Part shown: in pieces, positions 1 to 11,546 of the stretch | How the letters are laid out: the number at the start of each line of letters is the position of its first letter | Numbering within the stretch: position 1 is the stretch's first letter | Virus record (IMG/VR): IMGVR_UViG_2713896901_000004 | Location: 1-11,546 of that record | Strand: one strand, 5' to 3' | From: a virus | Lineage: Duplodnaviria; Heunggongvirae; Uroviricota; Caudoviricetes | Length of the DNA: 11,546 nt | Made by a program: the position numbers and the translations under genes | Notes under the pieces: model-generated | Databases searched by the model: none | What the model saw: the letters and a program-made list of their open reading frames with translations, nothing else | What the model was told of the DNA's origin: nothing

Positions 1-411
1 AAGCCCGCTTGCATTGATGACCATATCCACGGTGATGTTTTCATGTGTACCGAACCTGACAAGGACAGCAGCCCGCTTGTCGTCAGATAACTGATTAAAG
101 TTAACAATTTCTGCGTCAGGTTCAGGGGCGACCGGAACAAAGGAAGCCGACACCTCATTCCAGCGGTTTTCCTGCATATATTCGGAATCCCAGGAATCGA
201 GAGCAGGGCGGGCCATGCCGGGTTTATCCTCGCAGACAAGAAATTTATAAGCACAGTCCTGAGCTTCCGGGTATTGTTCCAGAAATAACCAGCTAAATTT
301 GGCTCTTGCCCGGCGTTCGTCGCCTGCTTCAATGGCAGTGGCCACAGGTTTAGCGCCTTCTGCTGTTGCCTGTTCGTCCGGAATGGCGGCGCAAATAAAG
401 ACTTTACTCAT
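1..411 (-). CDS. Hypothetical prophage protein, 3' end truncated by the window edge (137 codons visible)
   Basis: Open frame on the minus strand from ATG (plus 409-411) to the window start with no stop; GAGGT about 10 nt upstream of the ATG. It has no stop in the window, so it is absent from the ORF track. Translation starts MSKVFICAAIPDEQATAEGAKPVATAIEAGDERRARAKFSWLF. Sits where ydfE lies in the K-12 Qin dicB operon, but I do not recognise the sequence. Confidence 0.55.
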   Translation of the reverse strand, partial: MSKVFICAAIPDEQATAEGAKPVATAIEAGDERRARAKFSWLFLEQYPEAQDCAYKFLVCEDKPGMARPALDSWDSEYMQENRWNEVSASFVPVAPEPDAEIVNFNQLSDDKRAAVLVRFGTHENITVDMVINASGL

Positions 412-491
412 TTTGTTTTAACCTCATTACAGATTTAAGGGTGAACAAATCCCTGCCATTGCTGGCATATAAAAATGAAATCGGATATTAA

Positions 492-695
492 TTACGGTGC
501 TGTTTTAAGTCCTGCCGGGATTTCGTTATTGTCCATATGAATAACTTTATCGACCGGATAACAGTTACCGGGAATTTTTTGCTCTGCCGCGGCAGTCATG
601 CATTCTTCCATTGAGTCATGTATGTCAATAACAAGATCAATCGGTTCACCAGAAACAAAAAAAACAGTCAGAACGAGTACAAATGCCGTATTCAT
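492..695 (-). CDS. Small membrane protein with N-terminal hydrophobic segment, YdfD-like by position and size (67 aa)
   Basis: Preferred start MNTAFVLVLTVFFVSG: its ATG (plus 693-695) overlaps the stop of the upstream dicB-like gene (692-694) as ATGA on the minus strand, implying translational coupling. The track ORF 492..749 starts 18 codons earlier but without this coupling. Position after dicB matches ydfD in K-12 Qin (from memory). Confidence 0.5.
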   Translation of the reverse strand: MNTAFVLVLTVFFVSGEPIDLVIDIHDSMEECMTAAAEQKIPGNCYPVDKVIHMDNNEIPAGLKTAP

Positions 696-880
696 TGCCT
701 GCATCCTGTTTGCATCAGACGTAAACGGGCCAGCATCGAAACAATGCATATTTTATTTAGCAGTTCCTGTTCGTGTTTTCTTTTATTAATGGCATCTTCA
801 GTAAATATCTGATTGCTGATAGTGACACCAATTTCAAAACAACCTTCAGACGTATTAACGTTTGGTAATAACGTTTCCAT
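692..880 (-). CDS. dicB: DicB-like cell division inhibitor (62 aa)
   Basis: Internal start of track ORF 692..985, with GAGGA 7 nt upstream of the ATG (plus 878-880). Translation METLLPNVNTSEGCFEIGVTISNQIFTEDAINKRKHEQELLNKICIVSMLARLRLMQTGCRQ matches my recollection of E. coli DicB in length and most residues. Lies downstream of the dicF-like sRNA, as in Qin. Confidence 0.8.
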   Translation of the reverse strand: METLLPNVNTSEGCFEIGVTISNQIFTEDAINKRKHEQELLNKICIVSMLARLRLMQTGCRQ

Positions 881-1049
881 TATCGCGTCCTCAACAATGA
901 ATTTTGTGATGCGGTGCCTGGTGCCTCCAGGTGACGTTAACCAGTTAACAATTAACGCCGGATACAGAGAATCCACCCATAACACTGTTTTTAGCTTTAA
1001 CTGTTCCGCGTGCGCTTAGCCGCATTCACCGCATCACAAAATTCACTTT

Positions 1050-1105
1050 AAAAAGGGCGGACATCAGTTCATGGGCAAACAGATGCCGCCAAACGTCACC
1101 AGAAA
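1050..1105 (-). ncRNA. dicF: DicF-like Hfq-dependent sRNA
   Basis: Minus-strand sequence TTTCTGGTGACGTTTGGCGG... ends in a GC hairpin (GGCGG...CCGCC) followed by TTTTT. The 5' 20 nt match my memory of the K-12 DicF seed that targets ftsZ mRNA; the 3' hairpin differs. Located between ydfC and dicB as in Qin. Ends approximate. Confidence 0.7.
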
Positions 1106-1445
1106 ATTGATAACAGAGGGCGTTGCAGCGGGGTTGTCACTTAAGCGTATGGTCAACCTGACAACCCGGTGTCCTCAACGGGGAAGGAATAACCCCGCCA
1201 TACTTACCGCCGCGCCATTTCGCGGAGTGCCACAACCGGAAGCGCACGGTCGACGAAAATTTAACGACAGGCTATCTATGAACCAGCTACCTCGCCGTGC
1301 GCTTTCGCGTTATGGTCTGACTTTTCAGGGAAATATCCTTTCAGTAAACTGTCTGTGCCGGATGCTCACCCGTGTCCGGCGCACGCACTCCACCTCACCC
1401 GTGGAGAACTCCTTAATTACCAACCTTAGCTTCGTTGGTTAGCTA

Positions 1446-1664
1446 TTAACGCGGGTATGTAATCATTCTGGCAATGCTTAATGCCGCTGCTTTTTCCAGC
1501 CTGGTGATATCCTGCTCCAGAGCGGACAGATTTTCAGCCTGCTTATCCCTGGCTTCATTGGCCCATTTCAGATCCTGCGCTGCATTAATTTTCTGGCGCA
1601 TCCACTCATAAAGTTCATCATCGGTATAGTCTGGCGCGATGATGACGGGTTCTCGTTTCTGCAT
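1446..1664 (-). CDS. ydfC: YdfC-like small prophage protein (72 aa)
   Basis: Track ORF; GAGGA 6 nt upstream of the ATG (plus 1662-1664). Translation MQKREPVIIAPDYTDDELYEWMRQKINAAQDLKWANEARDKQAENLSALEQ; size and position match YdfC of the Qin dicB operon (recall). Confidence 0.65.
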   Translation of the reverse strand: MQKREPVIIAPDYTDDELYEWMRQKINAAQDLKWANEARDKQAENLSALEQDITRLEKAAALSIARMITYPR

Positions 1665-1693
1665 ACTGATTCCTCGCGGTGCTGCTTCGCTTA

Positions 1694-1822
1694 TCAGCCG
1701 TTAGATTTTGCCGAGCTGGAAAGCGCCTGTTTAAACTCACTGAAGCTGAGAGCTTCTTCGCCTTCGGCAAGGCCTTCGAAGTATTCTTCGTAAGCCTTTT
1801 CCATGATTGTGTCGAAATCCAT
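1694..1822 (-). CDS. ydfB: YdfB-like small protein (42 aa), below the ORF-track size cutoff
   Basis: Minus-strand ORF MDFDTIMEKAYEEYFEGLAEGEEALSFSEFKQALSSSAKSNG with AGGTGAG just upstream of the ATG (plus 1820-1822) and tandem stops (TGA TAA). Fills the gap between the ydfA-like and ydfC-like genes; size matches YdfB (recall). Confidence 0.65.
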   Translation of the reverse strand: MDFDTIMEKAYEEYFEGLAEGEEALSFSEFKQALSSSAKSNG

Positions 1823-1823
1823 A

Positions 1824-1979
1824 TCACTCACCTGAGTTTCTTTCCAGCCAGCGACGCGCGCCAGATTCGGTTTTAAACGTTTTGCTTTTGGTATACGTCA
1901 TCGCGGTGAACGTGCCGTCCTGGTTTGGGAACACGCCGCATACCAGAGATTCGTTGTTACCAAGATCGATAGTATCCAT
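1824..1979 (-). CDS. ydfA: YdfA-like small protein (51 aa, DUF1391-like)
   Basis: Internal start of track ORF 1824..2084: ATG (plus 1977-1979) preceded by GAGGT at 5-nt spacing. Translation MDTIDLGNNESLVCGVFPNQDGTFTAMTYTKSKTFKTESGARRWLERNSGE; a 51-aa product matches YdfA (recall). Confidence 0.7.
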   Translation of the reverse strand: MDTIDLGNNESLVCGVFPNQDGTFTAMTYTKSKTFKTESGARRWLERNSGE

Positions 1980-2055
1980 ATTGACCTCATTTCCCCTTAA
2001 CGCCGGGTAGCGGAACTGTTTGCTGAGAACACCGTGCGGTGTCTTGATGGGTGGT

Positions 2056-2084
2056 AATTTAGTTTTCTCATGAATGTTGGTCAA
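2056..2084 (-). promoter_or_regulatory. Candidate sigma70 promoter for the ydfA-ydfB-ydfC-dicF-dicB operon
   Basis: On the minus strand: TTGACC (plus 2079-2084), 17-nt spacer, TAAATT (plus 2056-2061). An inverted-repeat motif TGAGAAAACTCA (2095-2106) lies just upstream of the -35. Confidence 0.4.
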
Positions 2085-2168
2085 GTATTTTTAATGAGAA
2101 AACTCAATATTTAATGCAAAATAAAGCCAATACATTGAAATGTAAGGCTTTAAAATTTGTGAAGGGGG

Positions 2169-2576
2169 TTACTGATGTTTGTTACGTTTGCGAGCTTCTA
2201 GTAGCTCGGTGAATAGGCGATTAAAATTCTCAACGCGGGCACGGAGTTCGCTGATTTGTGCTTGCTGCTCTGATTTTGGAAGTGCGCGATACAATCGCAA
2301 CATCTCCAACTCATCTTCCGATAAGTCTAAGGCGCTGTTGAGTGCAACTGGTGGATCTGGTGTTTTATCCTCGTCACCAAACAGTATCCAAGTTGGTGAA
2401 CATTGCAATACCTCAGCCAGGCGATGCAAATTTTGCCCGCGCGGGGCTGTATGGTCGCTTTCCCATAGTGAAATTGATGAGCCAGATACGCCAGCGGCTT
2501 TGCTTAAATCGTTTTGACTTAAACCAACCTGTTTGCGTCTTTCTCTAATTCGTTGACCTAAAGTTTTCTCGTTCAT
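2169..2576 (-). CDS. dicA: DicA-like HTH (XRE-family) prophage repressor, 135 aa, no peptidase domain
   Basis: Track ORF. N-terminal HTH (QRIRERRKQVGLSQNDLSKAAGVSGSSISLWE) and the stretch VLQCSPTWILFGDEDK match my memory of E. coli K-12 DicA; same length (135 aa). Divergent from a Cro-like gene. Confidence 0.85.
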   Translation of the reverse strand: MNEKTLGQRIRERRKQVGLSQNDLSKAAGVSGSSISLWESDHTAPRGQNLHRLAEVLQCSPTWILFGDEDKTPDPPVALNSALDLSEDELEMLRLYRALPKSEQQAQISELRARVENFNRLFTELLEARKRNKHQ

Positions 2577-2653
2577 ATTTAGATATCTTAATAACCCTTG
2601 ACTTGAGATTCCTTGAGTGATTACTATTGAGAAAACTCAACTTTGGAGGGGTG
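2577..2653. promoter_or_regulatory. Divergent dicA/dicC intergenic control region with candidate rightward promoter and operator half-sites
   Basis: Rightward TTGACT (2598-2603), 18-nt spacer, TACTAT (2622-2627). Three TTGAG direct repeats and the inverted repeat TGAGAAAACTCA (2628-2639) overlap the -10 and start region. The same 12-mer recurs at 2095-2106. Confidence 0.5.
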
Positions 2654-2881
2654 ATGTTTAAATCAGACGTAATTAATTTTTATGGGACGAAAGCCAAAGT
2701 AGCGAAAGCTGCTGGTGTTGATCCATCTGCTGTTTCTCAATGGGGGGAACTGGTTCCTGAAGGTCGCGCGATGCGCCTGCAAGAGGCGTCCGGCGGGGAA
2801 CTTCAGTACGACCCCAAAGTTTATGACGAATATCGTAAGGCAAAGCGGGCGGGGCGGTTGAACAATGAAAATCACCCCTGA
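2654..2881 (+). CDS. dicC: Cro/DicC-like small DNA-binding protein (75 aa)
   Basis: ATG at 2654 with GGAGG 4 nt upstream; the track ORF begins at an upstream TTG (2627). Translation MFKSDVINFYGTKAKVAKAAGVDPSAVSQWGELVPEGRAMRLQEASGGELQYDPKVY resembles DicC/YdaS-type Cro-like proteins (recall). Divergent from dicA. Confidence 0.75.
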   Translation: MFKSDVINFYGTKAKVAKAAGVDPSAVSQWGELVPEGRAMRLQEASGGELQYDPKVYDEYRKAKRAGRLNNENHP

Positions 2882-3416
2882 ACAGGTTTGTGAGGCTCTG
2901 GATGCCTGGGTATGTCGACCAGGAATGACACAGGAGCAGGCGACGATATTAATCACGGAAGCATTCTGGGCTCTGAAAGAACGCCCGAACATCGATGTTC
3001 AACGCGTCACGTTTAATGATGGCGAGGTTGATCAACGGGCGCTGGGCGTTAACCGGGTGAAGATATTCGAACGCTGGAAAGCTATCGACACCAGGGATAA
3101 GCGGGAAAAATTCACGGCGCTGATTCCGGCAATTATGGAGGCTATCCGGATCAGCGATTTCAGGTTGTATTGTGAAATTACTGACGGAAAAAGCATTACG
3201 TACATGATCGCCGGGTTAAACAAAGAATATGGCGATGTGGTGGAGTCCGGGCTGCTTTTTGCGGATCCATCTGTTGTGGAACGTGAGACTGACGAGCTTA
3301 TAGAAAAAGCTATTGCTTTCAAGCATGCGTATCGTCAGCAATATCAATATTACTTTGCAGATAAACAAATGTCTGCCAGGGGTTCGTATGAGTATCGATG
3401 CACTACGATGGGCTAA
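2865..3416 (+). CDS. YdaT-like prophage protein occupying the CII position (183 aa)
   Basis: Track ORF; its start overlaps the end of the Cro-like gene by 17 nt. The motif REKFTALIPAIMEAI resembles YdaT-family proteins that follow Cro-like genes in Rac-type prophages (recall, unverified). Confidence 0.55.
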   Translation: MKITPEQVCEALDAWVCRPGMTQEQATILITEAFWALKERPNIDVQRVTFNDGEVDQRALGVNRVKIFERWKAIDTRDKREKFTALIPAIMEAIRISDFRLYCEITDGKSITYMIAGLNKEYGDVVESGLLFADPSVVERETDELIEKAIAFKHAYRQQYQYYFADKQMSARGSYEYRCTTMG

Positions 3417-4428
3417 AAAGGTGAAAACCGGCAGTTCATCCAGTAAGTCTGTATTGACCTGGCTTGCTGATATGTGCGGTGCCGATTTGTGTGCATACCC
3501 GTCTGTATCTGCACTGGCAGAAGTAACGGAACTGAACAAAAAGACTGTGCAGGACAGCTTACGACACCTGATGGAGATTGGGTTAATTGTTGATACCGGT
3601 GAGAGAAAAGGCAGAACAAAGCAAATTGTGGTGTACCGACTTATCGGTGTAGAAGAAAGTGTTGCCGAGCCTGAATACACCCAAAAACGGGAGTCTTTAA
3701 AGGTGGGTAAAATTGGTGCTGTTAATAAAAACAGTACCGAAAATGGTTATGTTTCAGCACAAAACAGACCCAAAAACGGAACTCTTAGCTGCATGGAAAA
3801 TAACCAAAGACACCCAAATTTTCCATCAAAGACACCCAAAAACGGATCACGGAACCCAAAGGAACCCAAAGATCTAAACCCCACACATAACGCACGCGAG
3901 AGTGCTCCGACCAGTGAGCAGGAAGTTTTATCGTTACAGGCAGCACCCCTTGTATTCCTGGATGGCCTGAGCGAACCCATCGGAAAATTTCCGATGACCG
4001 ATAGCTGGTATCCGTCACGGGATTTTCGACGACGGGCTGCGTTGTGGGGGATGGCTTTGCCGGAGACAGAATTTACACCTGCTGAACTTGCCGCCTTCCG
4101 GGACTACTGGGCAGCGGAGGGGAAAGTGTTTACGCAGATTCAGTGGGAGCAGAAATTCGCCCGTCACGTAAATCACGTCAGGGCGCAGGTTAAACCAGTC
4201 AGCAAGGGGGTAAGCCATGCAGCAGCACCAGGTAGTACCGCATCACGGGCAGTTCAGGAAATTCGGGCCGCACGTGAGCAGTGGGAACGTGAAAACGGAT
4301 TTATCAGCGACGGAAACGGCGTGGAAGTTGTGGGAGCTCATGGGGGAGGTTTATTCAAACCGCTGGACTCAGAAGAACGGGGCCGCACCTTCGACGCTCT
4401 GGATTGCACAGATTGGCGCGATGACTGA
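3388..4428 (+). CDS. Replication initiator candidate: N-terminal winged-helix domain, low-complexity linker, C-terminal DnaT-like domain (346 aa from the chosen start)
   Basis: Track ORF 3313..4428 starts at a TTG; I prefer ATG 3388 (MSIDALRWAKKVKTG...), which overlaps the upstream gene's 3' end. The linker coding region holds ACCCAAA iterons (3768-3870). Domain assignment is from pattern recall. Confidence 0.6.
   Translation: MSIDALRWAKKVKTGSSSSKSVLTWLADMCGADLCAYPSVSALAEVTELNKKTVQDSLRHLMEIGLIVDTGERKGRTKQIVVYRLIGVEESVAEPEYTQKRESLKVGKIGAVNKNSTENGYVSAQNRPKNGTLSCMENNQRHPNFPSKTPKNGSRNPKEPKDLNPTHNARESAPTSEQEVLSLQAAPLVFLDGLSEPIGKFPMTDSWYPSRDFRRRAALWGMALPETEFTPAELAAFRDYWAAEGKVFTQIQWEQKFARHVNHVRAQVKPVSKGVSHAAAPGSTASRAVQEIRAAREQWERENGFISDGNGVEVVGAHGGGLFKPLDSEERGRTFDALDCTDWRDD
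3760..3875. repeat. Iteron-like direct repeats (ACCCAAA core, 5 copies) inside the initiator gene; candidate replication origin
   Basis: ACCCAAA at 3768, 3812, 3834, 3854 and 3864. CAAAGACACCCAAA is exact at 3805-3818 and 3827-3840; ACCCAAAAACGGA is exact at 3768-3780 and 3834-3846; GGAACCCAAA is tandem at 3851-3870. Moderately AT-rich flank at 3715-3765. Resembles ori-lambda inside gene O. Confidence 0.45.
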
Positions 4429-4882
4429 GCAGCAAATCCGGCAGGTCTGCCGCCAGTGCATGGACCGCTGCCGGGCGGGTGAAACATGGCCCCCGGACCT
4501 GGCTGAGTTTGTGGCGCTGATTTCGGAAAGCGGGGCCAACCCATTTGGTCTGACTGTGGATGCCGTGATGGAAGAATACCGCCGCTGGCGCAATGAGTCA
4601 TGGCGATACGACGGAAGCGATAAATATCCGTGGTCACAGCCCGTGCTGTATCACATTTGCCTCGAGATGCGTTCAAAGGGGATTGAACGCCAGATGACCG
4701 AAGGGGAATTAAAACGGTTTGCAGAACGGCAGCTGACGAAATGGGCAAAGCATGTTAGTAACGGCCTGAGCGTTCCGCCAGTACGGCGACAACTGGCGGC
4801 ACCAAAACGCCCGTTGGGACCAACGCCAATTGAGTTGCTGAAACAGGAGTATGAACGCCGGAAAGCGGCTGGTTTTGTCTGA
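4421..4882 (+). CDS. Replication P-family (helicase-loader-like) protein candidate (153 aa)
   Basis: ATG 4421 overlaps the initiator stop (4426-4428) as ATGACTGA, implying coupling; the track ORF 4217..4882 starts earlier inside the initiator gene. Family call rests on position after the initiator and on recall; no Walker A motif, so not DnaC-like. Confidence 0.45.
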
Positions 4883-4916
4883 TTTGAGAAGTAATTTTTA
4901 CCGGGAGGAAATTTTA

Positions 4917-5678
4917 ATGGAAACCGTTTTTGATGCACTGAAAGCAATGGGAAAAGCCACGTCGGTAGAACTGGCTACGCGACTTGATATCAGTCGTGAA
5001 GAAGTGCTGAACGAGCTGTGGGAACTGAAAAAGGCTGGCTTCGTTGATAAAAGCGTATACACCTGGCGTGTGGCTTATAACAACGTTCAGCAGGAACAGC
5101 CAGCGCCGGCAGAACTGCCGGAAGAAACCACCACGGCAACAGTCGCTAAAATTTCGGAGAACGATTTAACTGCGACGATTGAACAACGTGGACCACAAAC
5201 GGCGGATGAACTGGCTACGCTGTTCGGTACCACATCCCGCAAAGTGGCTTCAACGCTGGCAATGGCAATCAGCAAAGGTCGTCTGATTCGTGTAAACCAG
5301 AACGGTAAATTTCGTTACTGCATACCGGGTGATAATTTACCAGCAGAGCCGAAAGTTGAATCGGTAGCGGAAACCGATGGTAAAGCCTTTCCTCAGCCAG
5401 CAGGTGTTGCGTTACCAGTACAGGAAGCTGCAACACAGGAAGATATTAAAACAGGAACTGTGGCTGATATTGTGCAATCGTTGCCATCGTTTACTGAAAC
5501 GCGAGCGGATGACCTGGTTTTACCATCGCTGCATATGGCAAACCGCGAATTGCGTCGGGCGAAAAGTCATGTCCAGAAGTGGGAGCGAGTCTGCGCCGCG
5601 CTGCGGGAGCTGAACAAGCACCGGGATATTGTTCGACAGATTACTGATTCTTCTCGCTGTGTTGCATCGGAAAAGTGA
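4917..5678 (+). CDS. Hypothetical protein with two tandem winged-helix-like segments (253 aa)
   Basis: ATG 4917 has GGAGG 8 nt upstream; the track ORF starts at 4851. Two similar segments (about residues 1-60 and 95-150) each look like a wHTH: ...[28 protein letters not shown]... and ...[30 protein letters not shown].... Confidence 0.6.
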
Positions 5679-5693
5679 TTGCCGGAGGCGCTT

Positions 5694-6185
5694 ATGGCAA
5701 AAGTATTTACACAAGAAGAGCGGGAAAAAATCAAGGGGCAGGTTGTTGAACTCGTGCGCCAGAGTGGGCGCGAGACGTTACGACAACTGGAAGCCAAGAC
5801 AGGTGCGACAAGATATCTGATGAGCATTCTCGCCAGAGAGCTGGTTGCCAGTGGTGATGTATACAACTCTGGCTACGGGTTATTCCCGTCTGAACAGGCC
5901 CGTAAGGACTGGCAAAACGCCCGCAAAAAACTATCCAGGGCTAAGGTGAAAAAAACGGTTGTGGTTGATCCTGACCTTATCTGGTCATTACCAGACGGAG
6001 AAATACGCCGCTACGACAGGCGTCAAAACATAATCTGTAGCGAGTGCCGGAAGAGCGAAGTTATGCAGCGCGTGCTGGCGTTTTATCAAGGAGGTGGCGC
6101 TGTGAGTGAAATTAGCTATCAGGCTTCAATTGCCGCTGGCATTCGCATCAAAGGAGAGGAGCATGGAAATAAAACCAGAAGATGA
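5694..6185 (+). CDS. Hypothetical prophage protein (163 aa)
   Basis: ATG 5694 with GGAGG upstream; the track ORF begins at 5679. No family recognised. Its 3' end overlaps the next gene by 23 nt. Confidence 0.55.
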   Translation: MAKVFTQEEREKIKGQVVELVRQSGRETLRQLEAKTGATRYLMSILARELVASGDVYNSGYGLFPSEQARKDWQNARKKLSRAKVKKTVVVDPDLIWSLPDGEIRRYDRRQNIICSECRKSEVMQRVLAFYQGGGAVSEISYQASIAAGIRIKGEEHGNKTRR

Positions 6186-6519
6186 GTTAAGTAATATTGT
6201 TTTATTTCCGGTAAAAGAGGATGACCCACGTAATCAGGTTAATTTTCTTTATGAGCCATCGAAAAGACCATATTGTCATCACGCCTCTGTCCGTGTTGAC
6301 GAAAAAGAGCGTCAGGTCCGCTGTAAAATCTGCGGTGCAGTTGTGGAGCCATTTGACTGGATGCTCTCTGTGGCGAAAAGAGAAACCAGACTGGCAGATG
6401 ATGTAAGGCTCTTGCGCCAGGAGGAACGGGAAAGGCGGAGAAATATAGAAAAGCTAATTCAGATTGAGCGTAACGCGAAAGCGCGGATACGCAGGGCGGC
6501 AAAATCAAGAACTGAATAA
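6163..6519 (+). CDS. Hypothetical protein with a Cys/His cluster and a basic coiled-coil-like tail (118 aa)
   Basis: ATG 6163 (MEIKPEDEL...) with GGAGAGGAG upstream; the track ORF starts at 6106. Motif C-H-H...C-x2-C (YCHHASVRVDEKERQVRCKICG), then an R/E-rich C-terminus. Confidence 0.5.
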   Translation: MEIKPEDELSNIVLFPVKEDDPRNQVNFLYEPSKRPYCHHASVRVDEKERQVRCKICGAVVEPFDWMLSVAKRETRLADDVRLLRQEERERRRNIEKLIQIERNAKARIRRAAKSRTE

Positions 6520-6612
6520 TTAAATTTAGCACTGTTAAAAATTTAATCCTTAACCGGAGGGATTTCTGCACCCTCAGAACATCAGGAGGCCGTTCGAAAT
6601 GGCGGTAGTGAA

Positions 6613-6795
6613 ATGCGAAAATTCAAAATAATTATTGAAACGGGAATAGCTGGTGGAGATTTTGAGGATGTATTCGAAGTAGATGATGACGCAACACCTG
6701 ATGAAATTCATGACGAAGCAAAAGAAATTTTCTTTAACTACTGCAATTACTCATATCACGAAATAAAAGGCGAGGAGGAAGAACAAAATGGCTGA
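6613..6795 (+). CDS. Small, strongly acidic hypothetical protein (60 aa)
   Basis: Track ORF; 18 of 60 residues are D/E, with a terminal EEEEQ run. No good SD directly upstream; instead AGGAGG (6584-6589) serves a 10-codon ORF (6599-6631) that overlaps this start out of frame. Confidence 0.4.
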   Translation: MRKFKIIIETGIAGGDFEDVFEVDDDATPDEIHDEAKEIFFNYCNYSYHEIKGEEEEQNG

Positions 6796-6964
6796 TTTTG
6801 GTTCAACTAAATACAACGTCAGTTTTGAAGAATGGCATGAACTGTTAATGGATTATGCAGAGTTACGTGGTGGAAGTGCTGCTGATGCTGAAGCCTGGCG
6901 TGATGACTACGAAGCAGGAAAAACACCTGTCGAAGCATATTGTGATGAGTGGGGCGATGAATGA
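6788..6964 (+). CDS. Small, strongly acidic hypothetical protein (58 aa), below the ORF-track cutoff
   Basis: ATG 6788 preceded by GAGGAGGAA. Translation MADFGSTKYNVSFEEWHELLMDYAELRGGSAADAEAWRDDYEAGKTPVEAYCDEWGDE. Its stop overlaps the next gene's start as ATGA (6961-6964), and its start overlaps the end of the previous acidic ORF. Confidence 0.5.
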   Translation: MADFGSTKYNVSFEEWHELLMDYAELRGGSAADAEAWRDDYEAGKTPVEAYCDEWGDE

Positions 6965-7476
6965 GCGAGATTAATTATCAGGAAGGGCATGAAACGGCAG
7001 GGCAGGCAAAACCAGTTGCATGGCGATATCGCTACGTGAAAAAAGGCGTTACGGACTTTCAGGAGAATCTGTGGGTTGGTGACTGGAAATATGTACCGAC
7101 AAAAGAGGATTGCAACGACAGGCCGAACTATGAAATTCAGGCCTTATTCGCTGCCCCGCCAGTTCCGGTGACATCAGAAGGACTGGTTAAAGCCGTGCGC
7201 TTTTATGAACAGGTAAAGCGTGAGAATCCACCAGTCGAAACAGGAGTATGGAAAGATGCTGTTGATTGGGTTCTCAAAGAGGCCTGCTGTGCTGTCATTC
7301 TGGGTAAAGCCGACAATCCATTAGCATCCAGTAACCAAGTTGGCGAATTAACAATGTGGGTTAAACGACTGGTCAGTCAACTGAAAAAAGCTAATCCAGA
7401 CTGCAAATTACCGGAGAAGGCGATGGACTACCTGAAGCGGAACGAACTGATAAGCGCGGAGGATGTTTTGCGATGA
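6961..7476 (+). CDS. Hypothetical prophage protein (171 aa)
   Basis: Track ORF, translationally coupled to the upstream small ORF. No family recognised. Confidence 0.55.
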   Translation: MSEINYQEGHETAGQAKPVAWRYRYVKKGVTDFQENLWVGDWKYVPTKEDCNDRPNYEIQALFAAPPVPVTSEGLVKAVRFYEQVKRENPPVETGVWKDAVDWVLKEACCAVILGKADNPLASSNQVGELTMWVKRLVSQLKKANPDCKLPEKAMDYLKRNELISAEDVLR

Positions 7477-7556
7477 CCTGGCCTGAAGCATTCACAACGG
7501 TAGGAATTGCAATAGCGGTGGCGCTGGTGGTGTATTCGATTTGCCACTGGATGTGA
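7473..7556 (+). CDS. Possible 27-aa single-pass membrane peptide
   Basis: ATG 7473 overlaps the stop of the 171-aa gene (ATGA). Translation MTWPEAFTTVGIAIAVALVVYSICHWM is mostly one hydrophobic helix. Not in the ORF track; very short, so low confidence. Confidence 0.3.
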   Translation: MTWPEAFTTVGIAIAVALVVYSICHWM

Positions 7557-7717
7557 GGTATTAAAAAACGCCCCGCACACAGACGTTGAGCGCCTGAGAT
7601 GTGGGGATAGGGAGTTAGTTAAATAGTTATACAACAATACCTGATTTTATATTGAAGCAAGAAATAGGTTGCTACATATTGAACCATGCGCGTGTACGTC
7701 AAATATGGGAGGTCATC

Positions 7718-7807
7718 GTGCTGGTTCTGAAATGTGCGCTGGCTATTGCGGCAGTAATGGCAATTTATTGTCTTGTTATCGTTCTTATGAATCACCTCTC
7801 TGATTGA
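7718..7807 (+). CDS. Possible 29-aa hydrophobic peptide with GTG start and strong SD
   Basis: GGGAGG (7707-7712), 5-nt spacer, GTG 7718. Translation (M)LVLKCALAIAAVMAIYCLVIVLMNHLSD. A candidate promoter TTGAAG-17-CATATT lies at about 7652-7680. Sits just upstream of the hok locus. Not in the ORF track. Confidence 0.3.
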   Translation: MLVLKCALAIAAVMAIYCLVIVLMNHLSD

Positions 7808-7814
7808 TTTTATA

Positions 7815-7843
7815 TTGGCGAGGTGACGTGAGTTAAGTAGAAT
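7815..7843 (+). promoter_or_regulatory. Candidate promoter of the hok/mok mRNA
   Basis: TTGGCG (7815-7820), 17-nt spacer, TAGAAT (7838-7843). The predicted start near 7850 precedes GGGTGCTTGAGGCTATCTGCCTC, which resembles the 5' end of plasmid R1 hok mRNA (recall). Confidence 0.45.
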
Positions 7844-7961
7844 TGCTGCGGGTGCTTGAGGCTATCTGCCTCGGGCATGAACACCAACGGCAGATAGAGA
7901 AAAGCCCCAGTTAACATTACGCGTCCTGCAAGACGTTTAACATTAATCTGAGGCCCAATCT

Positions 7962-8174
7962 ATGCTTCACAAACGTAGGTTAGCCTCTTACGTGCCGAAA
8001 GGCAAGGAGAAGCAGGCTATGAAGCAGCAAAAGGCGATGTTAATCGCCCTGATCGTCATCTGTTTAACCGTCATAGTGACGGCACTGGTAACGAGGAAAG
8101 ACCTCTGCGAGGTACGAATCCGAACCGGCCAGACGGAGGTCGCTGTCTTCACAGCTTACGAACCTGAGGAGTAA
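7962..8174 (+). CDS. mok: Mok-like reading frame: in-frame N-terminal extension of hok (70 aa)
   Basis: Track ORF; ATG 7962 with GAGG 8 nt upstream. It shares frame and stop with hok, as mokC does with hokC in E. coli K-12 (recall). Confidence 0.55.
   Translation: MLHKRRLASYVPKGKEKQAMKQQKAMLIALIVICLTVIVTALVTRKDLCEVRIRTGQTEVAVFTAYEPEE
8019..8174 (+). CDS. hok: Hok/Gef-family type I toxin (51 aa)
   Basis: ATG 8019 with AAGGAGA 8 nt upstream. Translation MKQQKAMLIALIVICLTVIVTALVTRKDLCEVRIRTGQTEVAVFTAYEPEE is a canonical Hok sequence, closest in my memory to HokD/RelF. Confidence 0.85.
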   Translation: MKQQKAMLIALIVICLTVIVTALVTRKDLCEVRIRTGQTEVAVFTAYEPEE

Positions 8175-8242
8175 GAGACCAGGCGGGGGAGAAATCCCTC
8201 GCCACCTCTGATGTGTCAGGCATCCTCAACGCACCCGCACTT

Positions 8243-8270
8243 AACCCGCTTCGGCGGGTTTTTGTTTTTA
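8243..8270 (+). terminator. Rho-independent terminator at the end of the hok mRNA
   Basis: CCCGC-TTCG-GCGGG hairpin (8245-8258) followed by TTTTTGTTTTT. Confidence 0.65.
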
Positions 8271-8282
8271 TTTTCAACGCGT

Positions 8283-8312
8283 TTGAAGTTTTAGATTGTG
8301 CCGGAATAGAAT
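8283..8312 (+). promoter_or_regulatory. Candidate sigma70 promoter for the downstream 86-aa gene
   Basis: TTGAAG (8283-8288), 18-nt spacer, TAGAAT (8307-8312). Confidence 0.35.
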
Positions 8313-8394
8313 CAAAAATACTTAAGTAGCGCGCAGGGAGAAGAGGGATGGACCCCGAACAGGGGAGTGCTATTTATCTGGAAGGATTCTGTTG

Positions 8395-8655
8395 ATGAAA
8401 ATCGAAGAATTACGTGAAATTTTTAGTGAAGATGGCCTCTATACTGTGCGCGTTGAGAATGGCGCTATTGTCAGCCACTGCCGTATTAAATGTTTACAGT
8501 CTCAACAAAGGAAGAGTGGAGCTGCGTTAATTCATTTTGTGGATGGGCTTGTGACGGATGGTTTTATTTTGCGTGCAAATGAATTTGTCACATCGTTGCC
8601 GTCTCTGAAAGAAGCTGGGATTAAGGCTGGTTTTTCTGCTTTTGAAGATGAGTGA
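8395..8655 (+). CDS. Hypothetical small prophage protein (86 aa); may correspond to rem of Qin by position
   Basis: ATG 8395; the track ORF starts at TTG 8392. AGGA about 9 nt upstream. Lies between hok and the DUF968 gene, where rem lies in K-12 Qin (recall); sequence identity not verified. Confidence 0.45.
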   Translation: MKIEELREIFSEDGLYTVRVENGAIVSHCRIKCLQSQQRKSGAALIHFVDGLVTDGFILRANEFVTSLPSLKEAGIKAGFSAFEDE

Positions 8656-8721
8656 ATTCATCTACAATTCAGCGCAGGGCTGAACCCCTGTTGAGTAACA
8701 CTGTGCCACCGGAGAAAGCCG

Positions 8722-9000
8722 ATGGCGCAAAATTCCAGACTACACAATTCTGATAATTCAGCCGTCTTTGCCAGCAGGCACGGGCGGCGTTCTCATGCAT
8801 TCAAATCTGACTGGTTCCAGCACGCCCCATGCACTGAAGAACAGGCCGAATGGCTGATTCAGAACTACCGCAGACGTGGGTATGAGTTTAGGAAAGCCCT
8901 CAGCCTCGATTATCGTCACTGGATAATCTCCGTCAGGCTTCCTTACTCTGAACGCCCACCGCGTCCGTCCCGCACATTCCAGCAACGCATCTGGAGGTAA
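8722..9000 (+). CDS. Hypothetical protein (92 aa), uncertain
   Basis: Track ORF with GGAG 8-11 nt upstream. Arg/Trp-rich composition and no recognisable family; could be a real small gene or a remnant. Confidence 0.3.
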   Translation: MAQNSRLHNSDNSAVFASRHGRRSHAFKSDWFQHAPCTEEQAEWLIQNYRRRGYEFRKALSLDYRHWIISVRLPYSERPPRPSRTFQQRIWR

Positions 9001-9010
9001 CCGGGTACTG

Positions 9011-9997
9011 GTGGAGCCGGAACCGAAAAGCATGCGTAATCTGCCGTCCGGGGTCGTTCCTGCCGTTCGCCAGCCGCTGGCGGAGGATAAATCATTACTG
9101 CCATTTTTCAGCGACGAACGAGTGATTCGTGCTGCTGGTGGCGCTGGCGCATTGTCTGACTGGTTACTGCGCCATGTTAAATCCTGCCAGTGGCCACACG
9201 GCGATTATCACCACAGTGAAACCGTCATTCACCGTTATGGTACCGGCGCAATGGTGTTGTGCTGGCACTGCGACAACCAGCTGCGTGACCAGGCATCCGA
9301 ATCACTCGAGCAACTTGCTCATCAAAACCTGTCAGCATGGATGATTAACGTCATCGGTCACGCAATAAGCGGTACGCAGGAGCGTGAATTATCTCTGGCT
9401 GAATTATCCTGGTGGGCGGTCCGCAATCAGGTGGCGGACGCGCTACCGGAAGCGGTATTACGTCGTTCGCTGGGGTTGCGTGCGGAAAAAATCCGCTCAA
9501 TGTACCGTGAAAGCGACATCGTACCGGGAGAGCAGACCGCCACCAGCATACTGAAGCAGCGCACAAAAAATCTTGCGCCGCTGCCTCACGCCCACCAGCA
9601 AAACCCGCCACAGGAAGAGGCGGTGGTCAGCAAAACCCCGCCACAGGAAGAGGCGGTGGTCAGCATTGCCGTTGATCCGGAGTCACCGGCTCAGTATCTC
9701 CAGCGCCAGAAACCACAACGGGAAGAGATGCCTGTATACACGCGCTGGGTAAAAACGCAGAAATGCATGACGTGCGGTAATCAGGCAGATGATCCGCATC
9801 ACATCATTGGTCATGGACTGGGAGGGATGGGAACAAAGGCTGATGATTTGTTTGTTATTCCGCTGTGCCGTAAATGCCATAGCGAACTACACGCCGGGGT
9901 AAAAGATTTTGAAGAAAAACACGGCAGCCAGCTGTTGTTGCTGATTCGTTTTTTAATGCACGCGAGAAATTCGGGTGTCCTGAAGTGGAAAGCATGA
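9011..9997 (+). CDS. ydfU: DUF968/YdfU-like protein with C-terminal Cys/His (HNH-like) motif (328 aa)
   Basis: Track ORF with GTG start at 9011; an alternative ATG is at 9032. C-terminal CMTCGNQADDPHHIIGHG...PLCRKCHSELH is a Cys-x2-Cys...His-His...Cys-x2-Cys-His arrangement typical of DUF968 proteins (recall). Contains a tandem 30-bp duplication (PPQEEAVVS twice). Confidence 0.65.
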   Translation: MEPEPKSMRNLPSGVVPAVRQPLAEDKSLLPFFSDERVIRAAGGAGALSDWLLRHVKSCQWPHGDYHHSETVIHRYGTGAMVLCWHCDNQLRDQASESLEQLAHQNLSAWMINVIGHAISGTQERELSLAELSWWAVRNQVADALPEAVLRRSLGLRAEKIRSMYRESDIVPGEQTATSILKQRTKNLAPLPHAHQQNPPQEEAVVSKTPPQEEAVVSIAVDPESPAQYLQRQKPQREEMPVYTRWVKTQKCMTCGNQADDPHHIIGHGLGGMGTKADDLFVIPLCRKCHSELHAGVKDFEEKHGSQLLLLIRFLMHARNSGVLKWKA

Positions 9998-10363
9998 ATG
10001 ACTGAACGCATAGAATTTGTTTTGCCTTACCCGCCGACGGTGAATACCTACTGGCGACGTCATGGCAATACGTATTTCATCTCGGAGGCCGGAAAGCGTT
10101 ATCGCCATGATGTGGCGCTAATTGTTCGCCAGCAGCGGTTGAAATTAAACCTGTCCGGAAGGCTGGCGATAAAGATTATTGCAGAGCCATCGGATAAGCG
10201 CCGTCGTGACCTGGACAATATCCTGAAAGCACCACTGGATGCGCCGACGCATGCCGGACTACTCATAGACGACGAGCAGTTTGATGAAATCAATATTGTG
10301 CGCGGTCAGCTCGTTCCTGGTGGGCGGCTGGGGATAAAAATCACAGAATTGGAGTGCGCATGA
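9998..10363 (+). CDS. rusA: RusA Holliday-junction resolvase (121 aa)
   Basis: Track ORF; its ATG abuts the upstream stop. Translation MTERIEFVLPYPPTVNTYWRRHGN...RRRDLDNILKAPLDA...GGRLGIKITE matches the RusA family pattern, including the catalytic RRRDLDN region (recall of E. coli RusA). Confidence 0.85.
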   Translation: MTERIEFVLPYPPTVNTYWRRHGNTYFISEAGKRYRHDVALIVRQQRLKLNLSGRLAIKIIAEPSDKRRRDLDNILKAPLDAPTHAGLLIDDEQFDEINIVRGQLVPGGRLGIKITELECA

Positions 10364-11049
10364 ATAACCAGTATTTACAGTTTGTGCGTGAGCAGCTCAT
10401 TATCGCCACCGCTGATTTGAGTGGGGCAACAAAAGGTCAGCTTGAAGCCTGTCAGGAGAATGCCATGTTCGATACAGGGCGTTACAGGCGAAAAAAAATC
10501 CGGTACCGCGATGAAGTGACTGGAAAAATGATAACGCGGGATAATCCACCAATCCCGGGAAAACAATCACTGGCGAATGGCTCATCAATTGCCCTGGTCA
10601 GCCCGGTTGAGTTTTCGACATCATCATGGCGGCGGGCTTTGCTGTCTCTTGAAGAGCATCATAAAGCCTGGTTGTTGTGGTGTTACGGCGAGAGTATTTG
10701 TTGGGAATATCAGATCGCGATAACACAGTGGGCGTGGAATGAATTTAATACTCAATCCGGTACCAGAAAAATTGCAGGGAAAACGCAGGAACGCCTGAAA
10801 AAATTAATCTGGCTGGCGGCGCAGGCAGTAAAAGCAGAACTTTTTGGTGGGGAAGGTTATGAATACCAGGAGCTGGCATTACTGGCGGGAGTGACAACTA
10901 AAAACTGGTCCAAAACATTTACTCGTCACTGGGTTGCAATGAAACACATTTTTCACCGACTTGATAGTGAGGCTTTATTGTTTGTAATGAGAACACGTTC
11001 AAAACAAAAGGCGGCATTTTCAAAGCAAAGTGTTGCAAAAGTAGATTGA
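10360..11049 (+). CDS. Late-gene antiterminator Q candidate (229 aa)
   Basis: ATG 10360 overlaps the rusA stop (ATGA) with GGAG 5 nt upstream; the track ORF begins at GTG 10354. Call rests on position (after rusA, before a PR'-like promoter, a short-transcript terminator and a tRNA cluster) plus partial recall of Q-family proteins. Confidence 0.55.
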   Translation: MNNQYLQFVREQLIIATADLSGATKGQLEACQENAMFDTGRYRRKKIRYRDEVTGKMITRDNPPIPGKQSLANGSSIALVSPVEFSTSSWRRALLSLEEHHKAWLLWCYGESICWEYQIAITQWAWNEFNTQSGTRKIAGKTQERLKKLIWLAAQAVKAELFGGEGYEYQELALLAGVTTKNWSKTFTRHWVAMKHIFHRLDSEALLFVMRTRSKQKAAFSKQSVAKVD

Positions 11050-11061
11050 AAGGCATATATT
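11033..11061 (+). promoter_or_regulatory. PR'-like late promoter candidate
   Basis: TTGCAA (11033-11038), 17-nt spacer, TATATT (11056-11061), overlapping the 3' end of the Q-like gene. Predicted start near 11068; a terminator follows about 45-70 nt downstream, as with lambda PR'/tR'. Confidence 0.45.
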
Positions 11062-11112
11062 TCATGCAAATCTGATATTTTGCCGATTTTGTACGTGATG
11101 GCAAAAGCAAAC

Positions 11113-11141
11113 AAAACCCGCCCACAAGCGGGTTTTGTTTG
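11113..11141 (+). terminator. tR'-like rho-independent terminator
   Basis: AACCCGC-CCACAA-GCGGGTT hairpin (11115-11134) followed by TTGTTTG. Confidence 0.6.
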
Positions 11142-11258
11142 CCACTTATCTCGGATAGACATGGTGAATGCGCTGGTGGAGGAGGTAAGGGTAATTTTTA
11201 ATCAGGTGATTCTTGAATGCTTGCAACATTTATTTCGTAACGTTATTATCCTGCGCCC

Positions 11259-11334
11259 GGCCCTTTAGCTCAGTGGTGAGAGCGAGCGACTCATAATCGC
11301 CAGGTCGCTGGTTCAAATCCAGCAAGGGCCACCA
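11259..11334 (+). tRNA. tRNA-Ile2-like, anticodon CAU (lysidine type), 76 nt
   Basis: Cloverleaf folded by hand: acceptor GGCCCTT/AAGGGCC, D-arm GCTC...GAGC, anticodon loop CTCATAA, T-loop TTCAAAT, 3' CCA. Closely resembles my memory of E. coli ileX. Met versus Ile2 cannot be decided from sequence alone. Confidence 0.8.
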
Positions 11335-11335
11335 A

Positions 11336-11412
11336 CCGTCAGCAGTTCATCAGGAAAGAGCGTCAACCCTTTAAGTTGAGTGTGCGAGGTTCGAGTCCCC
11401 GGTGGCGGTCCA
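11336..11412 (+). tRNA. tRNA-like gene with noncanonical features; anticodon loop reads CCUUUAA (UUU, Lys-type by position), identity uncertain
   Basis: Hand fold: acceptor 6 of 7 pairs (one G.U, one G/G mismatch), D-stem GTTC/GAGC with one G.U, perfect anticodon stem TCAAC/GTTGA, T-arm CGAGG-TTCGAGT-CCCCG with one A/C mismatch, 3' UCCA. Position 8 is C and position 33 is C, both atypical. Confidence 0.45.
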
Positions 11413-11414
11413 GT

Positions 11415-11490
<76 letters not shown>

Positions 11491-11493
11491 TAT

Positions 11494-11546
<53 letters not shown>

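Follow-up and report, generated by a model that had tools for sequence, protein, structure and literature searches.

Does the hok-like gene at positions 7815-8270 of a Caudoviricetes sequence belong to a complete, self-regulated type I toxin-antitoxin cassette like that of plasmid R1, or is it a leaderless remnant like hokD of Escherichia coli K-12? The sequence in question, hereafter the window, is the 11,546-nucleotide stretch covering positions 1 to 11,546 of IMG/VR record IMGVR_UViG_2713896901_000004, and all coordinates refer to it (an arrow marks features read on the minus strand). The original prediction, made from the letters alone, had proposed a hok/mok locus with its own promoter and with complementary mRNA ends, but had left the promoter and the terminator of the antisense RNA, Sok, unplaced. 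We find that the region very probably constitutes a complete hok/mok/sok cassette of the hokD/hokW subgroup, with R1-like regulation. Its setting is a Qin-like lambdoid prophage, within the early-right (nin-like) region. The reading frames, both ribosome-binding sites, the regulatory elements tac, ucb, dcb and fbi, both promoters and both terminators are all intact. This reading is carried by the open reading frames (ORFs), the promoter and terminator motifs, the alternative pairings given by fold prediction, their conservation and covariation, and near-identity to an experimentally tested locus, hokW-sokW.

Toxin and mok reading frames

The toxin frame, hok (8019-8174, plus strand), encodes 51 amino acids and matches Pfam family PF01848 (HOK_GEF) with an E-value of 1.2e-23 and 82.9 bits for a cut-off of 22, which bears out the canonical Hok frame of the original prediction. 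The locus thus holds a Hok/Gef-type hydrophobic toxin of about 50 residues, named HokD in RefSeq. The product carries accession WP_000813254.1, which is that of K-12 HokD/RelF and also lies under the match in E. coli SMS-3-5 and in a K-12-type genome; the identical K-12 protein has been described as a hok-like membrane toxin (PMC3598666). RefSeq annotation at the locus is limited to the hokD coding sequence, leaving mok, Sok and a small upstream ORF (see below) unannotated.

The second proposed frame, mok, was likewise confirmed: in the ORF list it spans 7962-8174 (plus strand, 70 codons), is in frame with hok and adds a 19-codon N-terminal extension. It was compared across 39 aligned leaders, which were drawn from Escherichia, Kluyvera, Photorhabdus, Pantoea, Citrobacter, two phages and an R1-type plasmid. 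The mok ATG is aligned in 37 of these leaders, the extension itself being poorly conserved, and the 57-nucleotide in-frame offset between mok and hok is the same in the R1-type locus. This overlapping, upstream-starting frame has a Shine-Dalgarno (SD) sequence of its own, GAGG (7950-7953, plus strand), read 8 nucleotides before the mok AUG and conserved in 39 of 39 leaders. The hok SD, AAGGAG (8004-8009, plus strand), overlaps the -35 hexamer of the Sok promoter on the opposite strand, and CAAGGAG is conserved across the 39 leaders.

A separate observation concerns the hok coding sequence. The codon for Tyr47 of Hok is UAC followed by G (8157-8160, plus strand), within GCUUACGAACC; UACG is the motif edited by TadA, and this context resembles the anticodon loop of tRNA-Arg(ACG) edited by TadA. 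Editing of hokD mRNA at UACG has been reported to change this Tyr to the second conserved Cys (bioRxiv 10.1101/2025.08.07.668861). The local fold around the motif is of ordinary stability (z = +0.35).

Long-range pairing between the ends of the hok mRNA

The 5' end of the mRNA carries a translational activator element, tac, which in predicted folds pairs in turn with an adjacent anti-tac, with a fold-back inhibitory element, fbi, near the 3' end and with ucb. In the window, tac is GGGUGCUUGAGG (7850-7861, plus strand), nearly invariant in 39 loci, and fbi is CCUCAAcGCACCC (8224-8236, plus strand), which pairs with tac leaving C8230 bulged. In every intact locus fbi lies about 46-66 nucleotides after the hok stop codon. 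The complementarity first noticed in the letters, between CTGCGGGTGCTTGAG (7846-7860) and CTCAACGCACCCGCAC (8225-8240), is present exactly where it had been placed, with the single bulge at C8230.

Folding of the full transcript, one of the checks proposed with the original prediction, gave a clear result. In the minimum free energy (MFE) fold of 7850-8268 (419 nucleotides), nucleotides 1-12, i.e. GGGUGCUUGAGG, pair with CCUCAAcGCACCC and close the whole RNA. The MFE is -172.3 kcal/mol (z = -6.9), and none of 100 shuffled sequences was as stable.

Conservation argues in the same direction. Homologous loci were fetched from one-genome-per-species contigs, and the 38 full-length loci (from Escherichia, Kluyvera, Photorhabdus, Pantoea, Citrobacter and one R1-type plasmid) were aligned with MAFFT without reference to structure. 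Across loci, 17 distinct tac/fbi combinations occur and all of them pair. Compensatory changes are seen at tac position 4 (U-A 8, C-G 7) and position 12 (G-C 9, A-U 7); positions 10 and 11 show additional changes. The proximal tac/fbi helix is 99.6% paired in the 38-locus alignment, one of its pairs being UA in 24 loci and CG in 12. None of 500 shuffles attained the overall covariation score, and pairing fell from 90.7% to 32-56% when the 3' partner was slid by 1-3 columns. These figures under-count the distal helix, because the Photorhabdus and R1-type loci, which have no bulge, fall one column out of register. The original prediction had made itself dependent on conservation of the two elements in homologous loci, and they are found there, with compensatory changes. 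Comparison of homologous loci showed tac to be absent from the K-12-type hokD locus, and a hokC-type locus (L017) has no fbi at the expected place in its 3' region. The long-range pairing between the 5' end and the 3' untranslated region (UTR) is thus found by MFE folding, shuffling, covariation and pair counts alike.

Leader elements and alternative folds

The leader, 7850-8024, matches Rfam family RF01794 on the sense strand with 113.1 bits (gathering threshold 59), covering all 157 model positions. The same-strand matches score 113.5 bits in phage 933W and 87.2 bits in the R1-type plasmid locus, and the pairwise alignment reveals shared blocks, so that the proposed likeness to the R1 hok leader holds. 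The family is named 'sok', yet what it models is the sense-strand mRNA between its 5' end and the hok AUG; because the model is the sense hok leader, the strand of the hit must not be taken as the strand of Sok. The blocks conserved among the 39 leaders are tac, ucb (AAAGCCCC), the mok SD GAGG, the mok ATG, AGCCUCUUAC and CAAGGAG. Of these, AGCCUCUUAC is the downstream complementary box, dcb, adjoining the Sok -10 hexamer, and CAAGGAG is the hok SD overlapping the Sok -35.

The leader elements were defined by Le Rhun et al. 2022 (PMC9841398). In the R1 scheme (PMC9841398), tac of the nascent RNA is sequestered in a metastable hairpin; in the full-length RNA, closed by tac/fbi, ucb masks the mok SD, and 3' trimming permits tac/ucb together with mok SD/dcb. 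Predicted folds of the window RNA follow the same succession. In the first 51 nucleotides, nucleotides 1-11 are predicted to pair with nucleotides 19-29 (-19 kcal/mol); the partner is a candidate anti-tac, GCCUCGGGCAU (7868-7878, plus strand), which would form the metastable nascent hairpin in the sense of PMC9841398. The first 76 nucleotides and the 3'-truncated RNA 7850-8222 (373 nucleotides) are both predicted to form tac/ucb. The full-length RNA is predicted to combine tac/fbi with pairing of the GCC of ucb to the GGC of the mok SD. The ucb, or anti-SD box, is AAGCCCC (7902-7908, plus strand), which hence faces the mok SD in the full-length fold and tac in the truncated one. The tac/ucb pairing is also the first stem of the Rfam consensus, and the RNAalifold consensus of the 39 leaders gives tac/ucb plus the adjacent hairpin. 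The dcb, GCCUC (7983-7987, plus strand; as defined in PMC9841398), is complementary to the mok SD GAGGC and is paired with it in the Rfam consensus structure; all 39 leaders share GCCTCTTAC unchanged, the preceding A being missing only in hokC-type loci. Alternative pairings for the nascent, full-length and processed RNA are thus found by thermodynamic prediction (51, 76, 373 and 419 nucleotides), by the covariance model and by RNAalifold.

A stem-loop in the 3' UTR, GGCGGGGGAGAAAUCCCUCGCC (8182-8203, plus strand), is present in both the full-length and truncated folds, and its GGCGGGG...CCCCGCC arms are conserved across loci. By analogy with R1 (PMC9841398), it is likely the protective 3' hairpin of the processed mRNA.

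Two further matches of the covariance search were set aside. A second RF01794 match on the minus strand (7763-7907, 17 bits, E = 0.3) is below threshold and was taken as chance. Likewise, a match to isrK, a Salmonella prophage Hfq-binding small RNA, over the hok 3' UTR and terminator at 8183-8264 (plus strand; 24.9 bits, gathering threshold 50, E = 0.005 for a 1-kb search) is below threshold and probably reflects chance or similarity of terminators.

The antisense RNA Sok

The original prediction expected a Sok-like RNA on the minus strand around 7930-8010. This span does cover the Sok promoter and the 5' half of Sok but does not correspond to one unit, the RNA itself running from about 7970 to 7900. 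The placement was mapped from the sokW misc_RNA of phage 933W and predicts an RNA of about 71 nucleotides (7970->7900). Its predicted fold comprises a free 14-nucleotide 5' tail (7970->7957) lying over the mok AUG, a terminator hairpin (7956->7902) and a U-rich tail, with a stability of -25.7 kcal/mol (z = -3.7). The putative promoter, assigned by homology, occupies 7977-8005 on the minus strand: a -35 hexamer TTGCCT (8005->8000), a 17-nucleotide spacer and a -10 hexamer TAACCT (7982->7977). It is this placement upstream on the minus strand that puts the Sok start at about 7970. At the corresponding site, the R1-type locus shows TTGCGC-17-TATCCT, and 7977-8021, the Sok promoter region of the window, is identical in 933W. 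Judging from their sequences, the primers YO-421/422 used for the promoter-less sokW construct of Takada et al. 2021 (PMC8621323) appear to replace precisely this -10 hexamer, TAACCT. In its sequence features, therefore, the locus has a cis-encoded antisense RNA over the mok start with its own promoter and terminator.

The experimental work on hokW-sokW (PMC8621323) shows how such a pair behaves: hokW is toxic and sokW counteracts it; northern blots detect sokW RNA, which is gone after mitomycin C, as well as full-length hokW mRNA and two shorter species; and deletion of hokW-sokW halves the release of phage Sp5. The antisense transcript on which the original prediction had also made itself depend is thereby on record for this 94.7% identical locus.

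Predicted transcription of the cassette

A consensus scan predicts a sigma-70-like hok/mok promoter at 7815-7843 (plus strand), with -35 TTGGCG (7815-7820), a 17-nucleotide spacer and -10 TAGAAT (7838-7843), i.e. 9 of 12 consensus matches. A TAnnnT hexamer stands at an equal distance upstream of the GGG start in homologous loci. The transcript most likely starts at G7850, because the R1-type 5' end and the Rfam model both begin at this same G. The full-length mRNA would then extend over 7850-8270 (plus strand, about 420 nucleotides), ending in the U run that follows an intrinsic terminator, AACCCGCUUCGGCGGGUU (8243-8270, plus strand). The terminator scan places the hairpin, whose 7-bp stem includes 5 G-C pairs, at 8243-8260 ahead of a T run. 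The same scans thus substantiate the claim that the locus has its own promoter and terminator.

The start site bears on the 5' element as first delimited (7846-7860): its pairing stands, but its first four bases, CTGC (7846-7849), lie upstream of G7850 and are probably promoter DNA rather than RNA. Three of these bases are complementary to bases after fbi, an extension that is lost in hokC-type loci.

End-to-end complementarity was also observed beyond the RNA: AGTTAAGT, upstream of the -10 hexamer, matches ACTTAAC just after fbi (7825-7838 and 8239-8252), and this feature is confined to hokD/hokW-type loci. If transcription starts at 7850, the match cannot be RNA pairing unless read-through transcripts exist. 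An antisense promoter-like site nearby (7836->7807) was discarded as an RNA gene: the A of its -10 hexamer is lost in related phages (TGAAAT).

Alternative explanations

Several points count against a complete and working cassette. The transcription start site, the 3' end, the processing and Sok are positioned solely by homology and prediction. The Sok promoter was missed by the consensus scan, because its -10 hexamer TAACCT matches in only 3 of 6 positions. The 5' tail of Sok differs from that of sokW at 4 of 14 positions, although its target changes along with it because Sok is encoded in cis. The tac/ucb pairing is nearly invariant, and its support is therefore conservation without covariation. 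Finally, the chromosomal hokA, hokB and hokC loci are reported to be incapable of post-segregational killing, as summarised in a recent preprint (bioRxiv 10.1101/2025.08.07.668861), so that an intact sequence is no guarantee of activity.

This last point leads to the alternative that survives best: the cassette may be intact in sequence yet silent, a decaying chromosomal copy that neither kills upon Sok loss nor plays any role for the prophage. It is in line with the hokA, hokB and hokC loci, for which the summary in that preprint also gives no response to rifampicin, and with the disrupted versions that K-12 itself carries, hokD being leaderless and the hokC-type locus L017 devoid of fbi. However, no element of the window cassette is damaged, a form with at least 80% coverage persists in 3,883 of 5,426 complete E. 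coli genomes (median of two copies where present), and hokW-sokW, 94.7% identical, is active (PMC8621323). Because of the absence of damage and the retention in most E. coli genomes, we consider a silent copy unlikely, and a functional cassette remains the preferred reading.

Under a second alternative, most hok expression would come from cro/O/P read-through, the gene being a passenger of the early-right operon rather than driven by its own promoter. The cassette is indeed co-oriented with the flanking early genes, the scan found only one weak plus-strand terminator-like site in 7600-7850, and K-12 relF/hokD is co-transcribed with relBE (PMC3598666). Against this, the 9/12 promoter lies exactly 7 nucleotides upstream of the conserved 5' G, the first base of both the conserved leader and the Rfam model coincides with that G, and the -10-like hexamer keeps its position in loci with unrelated upstream DNA. 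Read-through could, moreover, supplement the cassette's own transcription and need not replace it. A passenger role thus seems a shade less probable still than a silent copy, and we favour a cassette driven by its own promoter.

That the 5'/3' complementarity arose by chance and plays no structural part is practically out of the question: a gapless inverted-repeat search reports the tac-hairpin/ucb arms and a match reaching upstream of the transcription start but, because of the bulge, does not list tac/fbi, and chance alone should give the window about one 12-mer match with at most 2 mismatches, yet none of 200 shuffles of the 3' 125 nucleotides paired as well with the 14-nucleotide 5' element, the pairing occurs at the same position in all loci, it agrees with the tac/fbi stem defined for the family (PMC9841398), and the compensatory changes and covariation described above already refute the idea.

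Proposed mechanism and role

We infer, by analogy, that the cassette works in the hok/mok/sok style of plasmid R1. Transcription, 3' processing, the coupling of hok to mok, toxicity in the host and the biological role would all follow the known systems as set out here. A constitutive promoter would produce a stable mRNA of about 420 nucleotides, with the 5' tac first held in a local hairpin during transcription. In the finished RNA, tac would pair with fbi near the 3' end and ucb would lie over the mok ribosome-binding site; because of these two pairings, the full-length RNA would be neither translated nor bound by Sok. Slow exonucleolytic trimming from the 3' end would remove fbi and let tac switch to ucb, exposing the mok ribosome-binding site and the Sok target. 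The short, unstable Sok, continually transcribed from the opposite strand, would then pair across the mok start, block translation of mok and the coupled translation of hok, and the duplex would be cut. Should Sok synthesis stop, the stored processed mRNA would be translated, and the 51-residue Hok would insert into the inner membrane and kill or lyse the cell.

By analogy with hokW, the most likely role is that release of the toxin after prophage induction aids lysis, stabilisation of the prophage being an alternative. The setting allows a more speculative scenario. The cassette shares the orientation of the early-right operon in which it lies, and the scan detected no strong plus-strand terminator just upstream. 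On induction, read-through might both occlude the convergent Sok promoter and supply a 5'-extended hok mRNA, making the cassette a lysis helper that acts via transcriptional interference and not through loss of the element, possibly with the product of a small ORF at 7718-7807 as a partner. We regard this as improbable, and lysis assistance of the hokW kind remains our preferred role.

Prophage context and neighbouring features

Taken over its full length, the window represents a Qin-like lambdoid prophage of mosaic make-up, with dicB-side genes, cI/cro, O/P-like replication genes, hok, a rem-like gene, DUF968, rusA, Q and tRNAs. No complete E. coli RefSeq genome is identical to it over its whole length, the best showing 96.4% identity over 95% of the length. 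In SMS-3-5, 100% identity is limited to the hok segment: 7800-8290 is 100% identical to the hokD locus of that strain.

Immediately upstream of the cassette lies an unannotated ORF of 29 codons (7718-7807, plus strand), with a GTG start, a strong SD (GGGAGG) 5 nucleotides upstream and a hydrophobic product, VLVLKCALAIAAVMAIYCLVIVLMNHLSD. It ends 8 nucleotides ahead of the hok -35. It matches no NCBIfam family and has no RefSeq annotation. It is conserved in phages HannyBb, Tritos, Evi and mEp460_ev081 (86-89% amino acid identity), unannotated in all of them. Changes are mostly synonymous in HannyBb and in a contig from a metagenome-assembled genome (L057), where 5 of 8 nucleotide changes are synonymous. 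The stretch 7692-7830 recurs upstream of hok in other E. coli genomes with about 89-90% identity. Further upstream, a minus-strand hairpin (7606->7571; -18.1 kcal/mol, z = -3.1) is followed by CGUUUUUU (window 7563-7606). It looks like the intrinsic terminator of a predicted minus-strand transcript antisense to the small-ORF region; the 7563-7606 stretch is common to only 26 genomes, and the candidate minus-strand promoter at 7836->7807 lacks conservation in related phages.

Downstream of the cassette, a 33-nucleotide tandem repeat at 9596-9665 (plus strand; 2.2 copies, 97% matches) lies in the DUF968/ydfU-like gene and leads to the duplicated peptide PPQEEAVVS. Between hok and rusA, the coordinate offset relative to SMS-3-5 changes by 60 nucleotides, indicating a length difference within this interval. 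A tRNA cluster lies downstream of Q at 11259-11546 (plus strand), with a tRNA of anticodon CAT (Ile in SMS-3-5), a tRNA-Thr(TGT) and a third tRNA cut by the end of the window. No tRNA was called in an 80-nucleotide gap at 11335-11414, where SMS-3-5 has a tRNA-Lys.

Comparison with known systems

The cassette is already known and holds no novelty: the family, the hokD/hokW subgroup, its presence and enrichment in prophages (bioRxiv 10.1101/2025.08.07.668861) and the regulatory elements have all been published, and the hokW-sokW system has been annotated in phage 933W and experimentally tested in Sp5 (PMC8621323). The analysis contributes precise positions for the parts lacking annotation, among them the Sok promoter and RNA left unplaced by the first reading. 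This carries little weight as discovery, but it shows that a reading without tools is able to recognise a textbook regulatory RNA architecture.

Comparison with K-12 hokD (relF, in the Qin prophage) answers the question raised at the outset. The Hok accession is the same and the DNA is 99.3% identical over 8005-8290, from the hok SD through fbi and the terminator; the downstream neighbours (rem-like gene, DUF968/ydfU and Q) are also the same. The match is confined to this segment from the hok SD onward; comparison with K-12 hokD and its flanks was another of the checks suggested with the original prediction. The K-12 locus is without promoter, tac, ucb, Sok target, mok start and Sok promoter and has relB-relE in their place, directly ahead of hokD; RF01794 has no match there. 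The window leader, in contrast, is intact, in agreement with the proposal that the locus lacks relBE and is self-contained. The comparison shows that K-12 hokD derives by truncation from a cassette that most E. coli genomes carry in complete form.

The closest tested relative is hokW-mokW-sokW of the Stx2 phages 933W and Sp5 (VT2-Sakai), with 94.7% nucleotide identity over window 7830-8246. The search of the phage collection retrieved this stretch of 933W, in which the depositors had annotated mokW, hokW and 'SokW antisense RNA'. The layout of mok, hok and the antisense RNA is the same as in the window; the Sok promoter, dcb, hok SD, tac and fbi are identical, HokW is 92% identical to the window Hok, and the leaders score equally against Rfam, at 113 bits. 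The two loci differ in four positions of the Sok 5' tail and mok start region and at the Hok C-terminus (...FTAYEPEE in the window, ...FVDYESEK in HokW). After fbi, the window has a clear intrinsic terminator whereas the 933W sequence diverges. They also differ in position: hokW is found towards the right end of its phage genome, with unrelated genes as neighbours, while the window copy is flanked by the replication genes on one side and by the rem-like, DUF968, rusA and Q genes on the other.

The hok/sok (parB) system of R1 has the same architecture and regulatory logic as the window. Shared with it are tac, GG(G)YGCUUGAGGCU; the GAGG mok SD; the 57-nucleotide in-frame offset between mok and hok; AGGWUAGCCUCUUAC, containing dcb and the Sok -10; GCAAGGAGAAG, containing the Sok -35 and the hok SD; and fbi followed by a terminator. 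The proteins are less alike, R1 Hok being only 42% identical to the window Hok. The Sok-target/terminator hairpin of the window has an insertion of about 20 nucleotides relative to R1, and its tac/fbi helix bears the bulged C that the Photorhabdus and R1-type loci do without. The host elements differ too: the same regulatory design is carried by a prophage in the window and by a conjugative plasmid in R1.

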